From a phage, in NCBI GenBank assembly GCA_033580375.1, contig GCA_033580375.1_4527.1: a stretch of DNA of 64,000 nucleotides, one strand, 5' to 3'. Of the stretch, positions 2,054 to 64,000 are shown one piece after another (position 1 is the first letter of the stretch; every line of letters begins with the position of its first letter). The position numbers and the translations under genes were made by a program. Below the pieces are notes generated by a model. That model saw nothing but the letters and a program-made list of their open reading frames with translations, had not been told where the DNA came from and made no database searches.

Positions 2054-2377
2054 TCATTCACAGCTCCCTGAGCTTGAACTACAATCAGAATCACTTGTCC
2101 CAGAATCACCAGGCCAAGACGATACGTATGAATGATTATAACTTGAAGAGCTTGAAGCATTAACCTGTTTTGTTTTTGGACGAATAATTTCTTCCATCAT
2201 TCCGTCACCGATATATTCCCAACTTTTTTCATGTGTATCAGGAATAGGCATCATCCCCTCGCCTGGTTTAGCAGCAAACAACTTCTTCAGCATCGTAAGC
2301 ATTAATTGTTCCTCGAACAAAACGAACACCACCATCATCCCAACGGATTTCGGCATTAAATTTGACGTCTTCACCAT
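2054..2377 (-). CDS. hypothetical protein, Ser-rich C-terminus (start uncertain; internal ATGs possible)
   Basis: 107-aa ORF; 5' end overlaps ORF 2268..2495 in another frame, so true start is probably internal. Confidence 0.35.
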   Translation of the reverse strand: MVKTSNLMPKSVGMMVVFVLFEEQLMLTMLKKLFAAKPGEGMMPIPDTHEKSWEYIGDGMMEEIIRPKTKQVNASSSSSYNHSYVSSWPGDSGTSDSDCSSSSGSCE

Positions 2378-2495
2378 CCATCATGAATGAGTGTACGACT
2401 ACATCATCGTAATATCCAAGACCGTATTTCAACGAAACTTCTTGAGCAATCAAAGCACCTAATGTGTTATTAGGTTTAATCCAACGATTTAACAT
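2268..2495 (-). CDS. hypothetical protein
   Basis: 75-aa ORF on dominant strand. Confidence 0.35.
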   Translation of the reverse strand: MLNRWIKPNNTLGALIAQEVSLKYGLGYYDDVVVHSFMMDGEDVKFNAEIRWDDGGVRFVRGTINAYDAEEVVCC

Positions 2496-2562
2496 ATTGT
2501 TCTCCTCTTGAGTAAGTAAGAATATCTTAACATAGTTTTTAGTGGTTGTAAACTCTAGAAAC

Positions 2563-51438: not shown

Positions 51439-51699
51439 TTAAGCTTTACCGCCAGAAATAATTCCGAAGTTGTTAAAATCGTATCCAATATCGTCAGCAT
51501 CTACTTTAGGACTTGCTACAACATAAGCAATTTCACTACGTTTTGCATAGGTGTTGATTTCTTTACCATCGCCACCTAAGAAAGAATACCCATTACGTTT
51601 TAATGAGCCAAAGTCTTCCGCATCACCAATGAAAGCTTTAACTTTAAATTTGGGGTCTTTGGCATCCGCTTCAGTGATAAATTCTTGATACATTTTCAT
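51439..51699 (-). CDS. internal-protein-like (CTS-bearing) small protein
   Basis: 86 aa; N-terminal MKMYQEFITEA. Confidence 0.55.
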   Translation of the reverse strand: MKMYQEFITEADAKDPKFKVKAFIGDAEDFGSLKRNGYSFLGGDGKEINTYAKRSEIAYVVASPKVDADDIGYDFNNFGIISGGKA

Positions 51700-60371: not shown

Positions 60372-60398
60372 AAAAAGCCCTATCTAAATGATAGGGCT
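60372..60398 (-). terminator. rho-independent terminator
   Basis: minus RNA AGCCCUAUC-AUUUA-GAUAGGGCU followed by UUUUU. Confidence 0.55.
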
Positions 60399-60403
60399 TA
60401 AAA

Positions 60404-60967
60404 TTATTTACCTAGTTTAGTTATTATAGCTTCGGCAGCAGCTTTTAGCTTAGATGCAGTGTTAATACGATTTTTAATTTCAGTATACGCATCGCCAAGA
60501 ACATCAAGGCTATCAGAATAAACACTTACACTATTGCGTTCGCTATTTGAAATAGAACCTTTAGTTTTACGATCAAAATCAGTGTACACGTCTTGAAGAT
60601 CACGGGCTGCCTTCTTTGCATCATCCAATGCATCAAGAGCTTTATTCAAAGCATTGACATATTTTTTAGTGTCAAACATATTCTTAGAAATTTTAACAGG
60701 TGCACGTTCAGGAGTAGCTAAGGCGGATTTAGGAACCTGCGTGCCAGATGCCAGTTTCTTAGAAATTTTGAAAAACGCTTTATTGAAACTATTTTCTTGA
60801 CTCATCGTAAAAGAACTAGTATCGATGTTATACATTTCAATAGCTTTAGCTTTCCACTTAAGAAAATCGCCACGGTCTTTTGGATCCAAGTTGAAGAATA
60901 CTTTAGTAAGATCTGCTTCAGATGGTAATTTTGCTGCTTCGGTTAAAAATTCGGCGTAGGTTTTCAT
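60404..60967 (-). CDS. internal-protein-like (CTS-bearing) protein
   Basis: 187 aa; N-terminal MKTYAEFLTEA. Confidence 0.55.
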   Translation of the reverse strand: MKTYAEFLTEAAKLPSEADLTKVFFNLDPKDRGDFLKWKAKAIEMYNIDTSSFTMSQENSFNKAFFKISKKLASGTQVPKSALATPERAPVKISKNMFDTKKYVNALNKALDALDDAKKAARDLQDVYTDFDRKTKGSISNSERNSVSVYSDSLDVLGDAYTEIKNRINTASKLKAAAEAIITKLGK

Positions 60968-61056
60968 TTAAAATCCTTGAAATAATTTATCGGTTGGTTA
61001 TTAATTATTTATTACTTTGGTATTATCAGTAACAGCATTCTCTGAGAGATTCAAAC

Positions 61057-61085
61057 TAAAAAGCCCCAACCTTTCGGAAGGGGCT
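61057..61085 (-). terminator. rho-independent terminator (same hairpin as 44564..44592)
   Basis: AGCCCCAACCTTTCGGAAGGGGCT with A-run on plus = U-run on minus RNA. Confidence 0.6.
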
Positions 61086-61398
61086 AAGCCTTGCGGCGAC
61101 CTTGTCGGGGTTCCACCTGCTAAGGCAAGTGTTTGTACGAAACGCCGGGATTCGAACCCGGTTATTAAGCAGTTGACGCTACTCAATATTTTTAAAAGGC
61201 CATATCTCGACCATATCCGAACGTTCCGTCAAAAACGCTACTCGGCTTACGGCAAAGATATTTCCTCGAATCGATAATTCTGTGCGCCGTTTCTGCTGTG
61301 ATGTAAGGGGATATTAACGAATCATAAAGATTTATTAAGACCAGTCCTTACTCAGGGAACATCAGTCCGACGACTTGCCGGTAGCGACCCGGCTTCTC

Positions 61399-61761: not shown

Positions 61762-61838
<77 letters not shown>

Positions 61839-61844
61839 AATATA

Positions 61845-61918
61845 TGACCCAGACCAGATTCGAACTGGTAACCTTTCCCTTATGAGGGGACTGCTACTAA
61901 CCGTTGAGCTACAGGGCC
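61845..61918 (-). tRNA. tRNA with CAU anticodon (Met or Ile2)
   Basis: hand-folded: T-arm ACCAG-TTCGAAT-CTGGT, anticodon loop CTCATAA, acceptor GGCCCTG/CTGGGTC with one mismatch; no encoded CCA. Confidence 0.55.
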
Positions 61919-63423: not shown

Positions 63424-63687
63424 TTATTTCAAATATATTGCGTATTTTTTATAGCCACCAGGCTCATGTCGAAGACCTTTATCATTCGCAAAACGTTGAA
63501 TGTTATTGAACTGATTTTCGTCAAGTTCGGATGTGTCAAATATGAAAAAGTTTCGTTTGTTACCAAGCGTGATATGCGGAGTTAAGTCAATGTTATACAA
63601 ATTAAGAATATCAGCAATAACCTGATTGACCGCTTTGTTAATTTTCACACCAGACGATTCTGAGATGAATTCGTTGAAAGTTTTCAT
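63424..63687 (-). CDS. internal-protein-like (CTS-bearing) small protein, possibly IPI-like
   Basis: MKTFNEFISES from ATG 63687; located just past the tRNAs, where ipI lies in T4. Confidence 0.5.
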   Translation of the reverse strand: MKTFNEFISESSGVKINKAVNQVIADILNLYNIDLTPHITLGNKRNFFIFDTSELDENQFNNIQRFANDKGLRHEPGGYKKYAIYLK

Positions 63688-63712
63688 TTTAGGTTCCATT
63701 TGGTTGTTTTGT

Positions 63713-63750
63713 TAGGACTACTATAACATAGTCCTACAAAGATGTAAACT
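63713..63750 (-). promoter_or_regulatory. early promoter with TAGGACTA / TAGTCCTA inverted repeat
   Basis: ttaggactactataacatagtcctacaaagatgtaaac. Confidence 0.55.
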
Positions 63751-64000
63751 ATTTTATGCCTTTAGATGAAATAGTGTTCTGGCGTTTAACCCCAGTTTGT
63801 GAAAAATCATGGTTATCAATTTGGTCAACTCGCATAACACCAAACGCAGATTTAATTTTGGCCTTTGAACCTTTTTTGATACTAATTACCATATAAGTGT
63901 CATTTTTCTTATATTCGTAATTTGATACTTCAACGCCTTGATTAGAAATTGACTTAATAATAGCATTAGCGTATTCATCATCTAACGGGCCGTTAGTGTT
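63745..64000 (-). CDS. hypothetical protein, C-terminal fragment (start beyond window end)
   Basis: open frame from window edge to TAA at 63745 (...KGSKAKIKSAFGVMRVDQIDNHDFSQTGVKRQNTISSKGI). Confidence 0.4.

Follow-up and report, generated by a model that had tools for sequence, protein, structure and literature searches.

PHROG 2280, a protein family labeled "unknown function," is probably a group of internal proteins that are targeted to the capsid, encoded at a third locus of T4-like phages and so far not annotated as such. The member on which this analysis centers is a 187-amino-acid (aa) open reading frame (ORF) at positions 60404 to 60967 (minus strand, beginning MKTYAEFLTEAAKLP) of the window, the 64,000-nucleotide stretch of phage DNA that was analyzed. 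The capsid-targeting sequence (CTS), its portability to foreign proteins, and the polymorphism of ip genes are established (PMC9026906, PMC3012670, PMC9391042, PMC12373910), and the concept of one tag on diverse cargo is attributed to Repoila 1994 and to Mullaney and Black 1996, as cited in PMC12373910 and PMC9026906. The new part is probably the assignment of PHROG 2280 as a capsid-targeted family at a third locus, the portability of the tag being already known; a 2025 paper still counts "the two Ip loci" (PMC12373910).

The 5 kb around the 187-aa ORF and a second tagged ORF of 87 aa (63424 to 63687, minus strand) showed 95 to 97% identity to RB69-type phages (phiE142, ESh27, RB69, and PhAPEC2), which places the window in a Mosigvirus-like genome of the T4 type. 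The minus-strand gene order was that of the RB69 and T4 maps: e.6, frd.3, e.8, the 187-aa ORF, the rnaC/rnaD-like RNAs, RB69ORF150c, and then tRNA-Arg, tRNA-Met, tRNA.2-4, the ip genes, and 57B. Two tRNA genes, at 61762 to 61918, lie between the surroundings of the 187-aa ORF and those of the 87-aa ORF. The first-pass annotation had stated that both ORFs carry the same tag and sit in the region around the tRNAs, and both points were confirmed: the minus-strand ORFs open with MKTYAEFLTE/A and MKTFNEFISE/S (the slash marking the predicted cut) and stand on either side of the tRNA genes. The same annotation had described both ORFs as cargo genes far from the ipII/ipIII locus. The 187-aa ORF, between rnaC and e.8, is outside both recognized ip loci (denV-e and tRNA.4-57B), but the 87-aa ORF is not remote from them: it lies between tRNA.4 and 57B, inside the classical polymorphic ipI locus.

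The 187-aa gene at the rnaC-e.8 junction

The leader MKTYAEFLTE occupies codons 1 to 10 of the 187-aa ORF (60938 to 60967, minus strand), with a predicted gp21 cut after Glu10. Like MKTFNEFISE of the 87-aa ORF, it resembles the 10-residue leader MKT(Y/F)xEF(I/L)xE of T4 IPI, IPII, and IPIII, which ends in a gp21 motif (Mullaney and Black 1996; for reviews, see PMC9026906 and PMC3012670). In each leader, position 4 is aromatic and position 7 is Phe, and residues 8 to 10 read L-T-E in the 187-aa ORF and I-S-E in the 87-aa ORF; positions 4 and 7 and an [L/I]-x-E at positions 8 to 10 are reported to govern targeting and processing (PMC9026906). In a six-frame translation of the window, the strict motif MK[TS][YFW]x[ED][FYL][ILV]xE was found five times, always at the start of a minus-strand ORF with a ribosome binding site (RBS), compared with a mean of 0 in 100 mononucleotide shuffles. 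The five ORFs were the 187-aa ORF, the 87-aa ORF, and the ipII-like, ipIII-like, and Ip5-like genes beside the lysozyme gene e, and a looser scan added a sixth match, MKMYQEFITE, in an 86-aa ORF starting at 51699. Across the five leaders, 24 of 73 codon pairs for identical residues differed in codon, which argues that the peptide, under selection, is what is conserved and not recently copied DNA.

Removal of the leader would give a mature product of 177 residues (19.6 kDa; pI 9.5) with Ala11 as its predicted N terminus (AAKLPSEADLTK). The mature protein contains no internal [L/I]-x-E site and should therefore survive the gp21 protease intact, and it is basic, like the ipII-like and ipIII-like proteins of the window. 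T4 IPI, IPII, and IPIII are likewise small, basic, and nonessential, with unrelated mature parts behind a common leader. The 187-aa protein differs from them in that its mature part has no detectable similarity to theirs, that it is about twice the size of most T4 internal proteins, and that its gene is outside both recognized loci.

Read from its sequence, the gene is a self-contained cassette consisting of the rnaC terminator, a late-type promoter motif, an RBS, the tagged ORF, and its own terminator. The upstream boundary is a hairpin with a T-run (61058 to 61084, minus strand; -17.1 kcal/mol, z = -2.7) at the 3' end of the rnaC-like RNA. The late-promoter-type octamer AATAAATA (61006 to 61013, minus strand) lies 38 nt 5' of the ATG, and a putative RBS, AAGGA (60974 to 60978, minus strand), lies 6 nt before it. 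An intrinsic terminator just past the stop codon (60375 to 60399, minus strand; -15.7 kcal/mol, z = -4.0) forms the downstream boundary and is followed by ggtatctaggcctttcc, the sequence that stands directly 3' of the rnaC terminator in T4.

The insertion point is defined by the rnaC and rnaD stable-RNA homologues (61055 to 61398, minus strand), which are 92% identical to T4 rnaC/rnaD. In T4, the rnaC terminator (…ccgaaaggttggggcTTTTT) runs straight into ggtatctaagcctttcc and the e.8 promoter; the window differs in having, behind this terminator, an insert of about 680 bp that contains a gtAATAAATA spacer, the AAGGA RBS, the ORF, and a second hairpin (AAGCCCTATC…GATAGGGCTTTTT) before ggtatctaggcctttcc resumes. 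Both T4 and PST are empty at this exact point, with the rnaC terminator followed directly by ggtatcta.gcctttcc. Two tandem paralogues occupy the site in PhAPEC2 and phiE142, a 154-aa gene coming first and the 187-aa gene second; in PhAPEC2, the 154-aa gene is enclosed by two copies of the rnaC hairpin, and the duplicated terminator separates it from the 187-aa gene. The presence of the 187-aa gene is therefore variable: T4 and PST lack it, RB69 has it with a frameshift, the window and RB14 have it as the only gene at the site, and in PhAPEC2 and phiE142 it is one of two. The rnaC/rnaD-like region (61055 to 61398) also contains a tRNA T-loop-like sequence, GGTTCGAATCC, and its 3' end is the hairpin that marks the insertion point of the cassette; a search of Rfam returned no family match for this region.

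This arrangement resembles PeSL cassettes (Arbiol 2010; Comeau 2014, PMC4122927), which are single-gene cassettes bounded by short conserved regulatory hairpins. Presence/absence polymorphism exactly at the hairpins is a further likeness, and in PhAPEC2 the direct-repeat hairpin flanks the neighboring paralogue. By analogy with PeSL shuffling (PMC4122927), such cassettes are probably gained, lost, and duplicated when the terminator hairpins on either side recombine. The 187-aa ORF is not itself a PeSL cassette as defined in PMC4122927, since its hairpin is a terminator, its promoter motif is late-type, and no early sigma-70 promoter was found.

The octamer AATAAATA differs from the canonical T4 late-promoter consensus, TATAAATA, at the first base. 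The heptamer ATAAATA was threefold depleted in the window (9 observed versus 29.8 expected), and seven of the nine copies (sites 2865, 3461, 34798, 44928, 45151, 52969, and 61006) stood 22 to 38 nt before an RBS and ATG, so that it is a fairly clean late-type promoter marker in this genome. The lysozyme gene e (MNIFEMLR…) is preceded by gtAATAAATA, the same octamer as for the 187-aa ORF, and not by the canonical form. At the equivalent place, directly after a hairpin, TATAAATA was found in phiD1 (g140), KMB19, and JQD51; GATAAATA in EcS1 and before the homologue P0013 on the metagenome contig L004; and CATAAATA in HMGUkp2 and before an ART-PolyVal gene that follows P0013 on L004. No candidate middle (MotA-box) or early promoter with convincing spacing was present upstream of the 187-aa ORF. 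At the motif level, the 187-aa ORF is thus late-type and the 87-aa ORF early-type, like T4 ipI, ipII, and ipIII; the 187-aa gene apparently has a late-type promoter only, whereas the ip genes examined have an early-type promoter with an overlapping stem-loop. Late expression, as predicted from these motifs, would fit a protein required during prohead assembly.

The 187-aa gene was 96.5% identical in nucleotide sequence to its RB14 counterpart, with 15 synonymous and 4 nonsynonymous codon changes, whereas the coding genes flanking it were just 69 to 87% identical between the same two genomes, a pattern that indicates purifying selection on the 187-aa gene. Recent exchange between genera probably also contributed to the high identity with RB14, yet the adjacent rnaC/rnaD region is itself about 92 to 94% conserved. 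Searches placed the protein in 165 phage records (coverage of 80% or more, 85 to 100% protein identity), all but one of them at 95% identity or above. These records span Mosigvirus and Tequatrovirus (RB14, Shfl2, fPS-65, and others), and the label of the protein is "hypothetical" in every one of the records listed. In the RB69 reference, a 1-nt deletion at about codon 122 splits the gene into the overlapping ORF149c and ORF148c (4682 to 5244 of contig L001, corresponding to RB69 73428 to 73990), meaning either that the gene is dispensable there and a real pseudogene or that the deletion is an old sequencing error. Shortened versions of the protein were P0010, P0012, and a 106-aa form in OE5505.

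AlphaFold models of the 187-aa protein were of low confidence (pLDDT 62 and 65) and point to an N-terminal domain that is small and helical, followed by a disordered linker and, at the C terminus, a long helical hairpin. Pfam gave only subthreshold matches to helical proteins, NCBIfam and PADLOC gave no match, and a PDB profile search gave nothing significant (E = 0.47). In Foldseek searches with the model, the best PDB match had an E value of 0.33, and BFVD yielded only family members and weak matches from T4-like phages. No enzymatic domain was detectable in the protein by these comparisons.

PHROG 2280 across the Tevenvirinae

The 187-aa ORF matched PHROG 2280 with an E value of 3.8e-53, residues 1 to 181 aligning with profile positions 1 to 178 of 178. 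End-to-end matches with E values of 1e-36 to 1e-60 were likewise obtained for phiD1 g140 (157 aa; E = 4e-60), PhAPEC2 gp134 (154 aa; E = 2e-53), and the Karamvirus, Kagamiyamavirus, and Klebsiella-phage homologues. When phiD1 g140 and PhAPEC2 gp134 were compared with the 187-aa protein by BLASTP, only the leader aligned (11 residues for phiD1 g140). The possibility that g140 is an unrelated cargo behind the same tag was nevertheless rejected, because g140 and the 187-aa protein both match PHROG 2280 from end to end. The rnaC-e.8 locus thus holds divergent paralogues of one family and not unrelated cargo, and the comparison of this locus across T4-like phages, proposed in the first-pass annotation as a check for cargo swapping behind a constant tag, turned up remote PHROG 2280 paralogues instead.

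An exhaustive HMMER single-sequence search of 1.84 billion representatives returned near-identical copies and one distant homologue, P0013 (31% identity), and the wider family surfaced only through the bridge provided by P0013 and through the PHROG profile. Searches with tblastn bridged by P0013 identified 351 phage records, including Karamvirus, Kagamiyamavirus, Dhakavirus, Klebsiella and Enterobacter phages, and other Mosigvirus members, and the g140 subfamily comprised 512 records. The named members of three subfamily clusters are hypothetical or uncharacterized, bar one evidently spurious label. In four additional phage genomes, the gene followed the tRNA cluster (or lay in the equivalent interval where tRNAs were unannotated), preceded e.8/e.6-type genes, and was called hypothetical. 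The leader of the distant homologues has the form M-x-x-(F/Y)-x-(E/D)-(F/I)-(L/I)-x-E and is retained even though these homologues are only 21 to 27% identical to the 187-aa protein overall and the length of the Pro/Ala/Lys-rich linker varies. Position, promoter motif, and leader were all kept by members in several Tevenvirinae genera.

PHROG 2280 carries no functional label, and the present analysis adds to it the leader, a motif of the late-promoter type, a constant location behind the tRNAs and rnaC, and the virion detection of one member. No mention of RB69ORF148c/149c, RB14ORF136, RB32ORF133c, or Shfl2p135 was found in the main texts of openly accessible papers, so that a prior description is possible; internal proteins are not a topic of Nolan 2006 or Petrov 2010.

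A neighboring gene was observed on the T4-like metagenome contig that encodes P0013 (SRR28624380_555336; L004). At 2092 to 2526 (plus strand), a 144-aa protein combines a CTS-like leader, MITFKQFLNE/S, with an ART-PolyVal domain (Pfam PF18760, 45 bits; PHROG 4700). Its gene lies directly 3' of the PHROG 2280 homologue, behind a hairpin and CATAAATA, and the two share the leader variant. T4 Alt is an ADP-ribosyltransferase that is packaged in the head and processed by gp21, and it shows that enzymes, and not just small inhibitors, travel in the head. The pairing of leader and ART-PolyVal domain on L004 is comparable, and the 144-aa protein may be a packaged ART enzyme distinct from Alt, although Alt has a different propeptide and belongs to a different ART family.

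Packaging and possible roles

One family member has been detected in particles. By LC-MS/MS of purified virions, fD1 Gp140 was particle-associated (PMC8309999, Table S3), within a permissive set of 113 to 137 of 277 gene products; Gp140 is a remote paralogue of the 187-aa protein and not its orthologue. The RB69 paper PMC6024577 contains no virion proteomics. With this detection and the leaders in view, we consider it quite likely that both ORFs encode T4-type internal head proteins, predicted to be packaged and processed. The N-terminal decapeptide M-K-T-Y/F-x-E-F-L/I-x-E would steer each protein into the scaffold core while the prohead assembles, the gp21 prohead protease would cut it off after Glu10, and the mature protein would remain in the filled head and enter the host cell with the DNA. 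The 87-aa protein would be expressed, as an Ip9 allele, from an early-type promoter with an overlapping, PeSL-like stem-loop, and the 187-aa protein from a cassette of late promoter, RBS, tagged ORF, and terminator at a third site, the junction of the rnaC terminator and e.8. The 187-aa protein is most likely made late, cleaved by gp21, and injected with the DNA; packaging, cleavage, and injection are here inferred.

Three other explanations of the 187-aa gene were weighed against this reading. An unlikely one is that the protein is a prohead-core component or accessory, or a basic DNA-condensing protein, with no role in the newly infected cell. The all-helical predicted fold, with its long C-terminal hairpin and Pro/Ala/Lys-rich linker, does recall scaffold-like proteins, and the basic mature protein (pI 9.5) and the exclusively late-type promoter motif would suit such a role. 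However, a gene that is absent from T4 and PST and frameshifted in RB69 is not needed for assembly, and the mature protein lacks internal gp21 sites, unlike a core protein destined for degradation. Basicity is also shared by the ipII-like and ipIII-like proteins of the window, and T4 Ip2 and Ip3 are defense inhibitors (PMC12373910).

It is still less probable that the leader was inherited or arose by convergence and no longer works, the product being an unpackaged late protein that stays in the cytoplasm like any other. Starts of the MKT… type are common in AT-rich phage genes, and the annotations of the family read "hypothetical" or "uncharacterized" apart from the one spurious label, but the full 10-residue motif (positions 4, 7, 8, and 10) is kept in homologues of 21 to 27% identity, the strict motif occurs in the window only at the starts of internal-protein-type ORFs and never in the shuffles, and LC-MS/MS picked up a paralogue in virions. 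Gene decay, with a nascent pseudogene carried passively beside stable RNA genes, appears very improbable: the RB69 frameshift and the shortened forms (P0010, P0012, and the 106-aa form of OE5505) are what such decay would look like, whereas the ORF is intact in the 165 phage records at 85 to 100% protein identity, the 15:4 ratio of synonymous to nonsynonymous changes reflects purifying selection, and promoter, RBS, and terminator are all intact.

Ip1, Ip2, and Ip3 are prepackaged inhibitors of GmrSD type IV restriction enzymes (PMC12373910), and no other internal protein has a known target. By analogy with Ip1 to Ip3, our guess is that the 187-aa cargo disarms a host defense that acts immediately on entry. 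A wider proposal, which we advance tentatively and regard as somewhat doubtful, is that the rnaC-e.8 junction is an unrecognized third internal-protein locus of the Tevenvirinae, with zero to two copies of fast-diverging PHROG 2280 in several hundred phages of at least four named genera, whose members would be expressed late, loaded by means of the CTS, cleaved by gp21, and injected, and would neutralize a host defense that lacks a matched phage inhibitor, such as additional GmrSD-type systems or other first-response ones. If PHROG 2280 is taken as a probable capsid-targeted family at such a locus, hundreds of "hypothetical" genes would gain a testable role, the list of candidates for antidefense screens would lengthen, and a natural tag on a larger, two-domain cargo would be relevant to protein delivery with engineered T4.

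The 87-aa Ip9 gene and other tagged genes

The 87-aa gene (63424 to 63687, minus strand, beginning MKTFNEFISESSG) matched PHROG 7673, "internal head protein" (E = 7e-49), and carries the leader MKTFNEFISE in codons 1 to 10 (63658 to 63687, minus strand), with a predicted cut after Glu10. An upstream ATG at 63699, which would give a 91-aa product, was disfavored as the start because Ip9 homologues begin at MKT. RB15 Ip9 (UniProt Q38376) matched with E = 3.9e-31 and had 71% identity over 100% of the query by BLASTP (74% in the alignment), and homologues are annotated as ip9, ipI, or internal head protein. By this homology the gene is an already known one, an Ip9 allele or homologue in the ipI locus. 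It falls within the Ip4-Ip13 series of that locus (Repoila et al. 1994, EMBO J, as described in papers that cite it), with a leader and length class like those of RB15 Ip9, and differs from RB15 Ip9 as a divergent allele in which Phe replaces Tyr at leader position 4. Neither the series nor the locus includes the 187-aa ORF.

Upstream of the 87-aa gene, an early sigma-70-type promoter (TTTACA-17-TATAGT) with a stem-loop over the -10 element (63720 to 63748, minus strand; -14.4 kcal/mol, z = -3.6) forms a PeSL-like element. T4 ipI, ipII, and ipIII have an early promoter and stem-loop upstream in the same layout. The combination of early promoter and stem-loop that defines PeSL cassettes is therefore present at the 87-aa ORF.

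The first-pass annotation had also inferred that the tag is a portable module attached to diverse cargo. Tag and cargo are indeed separable, as the Ip9-type mature part exists without the tag and one leader variant heads both a PHROG 2280 homologue and the ART-PolyVal gene, but the idea itself is established T4 biology. An untagged Ip9 mature part (57% identity) was found as a 72-aa protein of SHAK7858, a 44.5-kb phage that is not T4-like (contig L009, 3007 to 3225, plus strand). This protein is encoded in an accessory-gene region and is automatically annotated as "internal head protein," and in the alignment its Met falls 10 residues inside the predicted mature part of the 87-aa protein. The Ip9 mature domain also forms, again without the tag, the C-terminal domain (residues 874 to 931) of a 950-aa Kuttervirus protein (contig L016, 2590 to 5442, plus strand). 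The untagged Ip9-like protein suggests that a cargo can start as an ordinary early accessory protein and gain the tag later, or the reverse.

Further tagged genes were observed in the window. The 86-aa ORF (51442 to 51699, minus strand; MKMYQEFITE/ADAKDPKF) has the 93-aa Ip5-like gene on one side and the ipIII-like gene on the other, and, counting it, the e-to-ipII interval contains four tagged genes in a row. The 3' part of a seventh ip gene, cut by the end of the window (63749 to 64000, minus strand), resembles the "internal head protein" of RB69 (RB69p156) and of phiE142, which in full-length form opens with MKTYQEFIAE/MKTYKEFIAE. In phage OLB35, the 77-aa Ip7 protein (P0032) looks chimeric: its N-terminal half is like the C-terminal part of the adjacent RB69p156-like ip protein, and some 30 residues at its C-terminal end match the end of the window's Ip9-like protein exactly. 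This pattern suggests that two neighboring ip genes were joined by a deletion.
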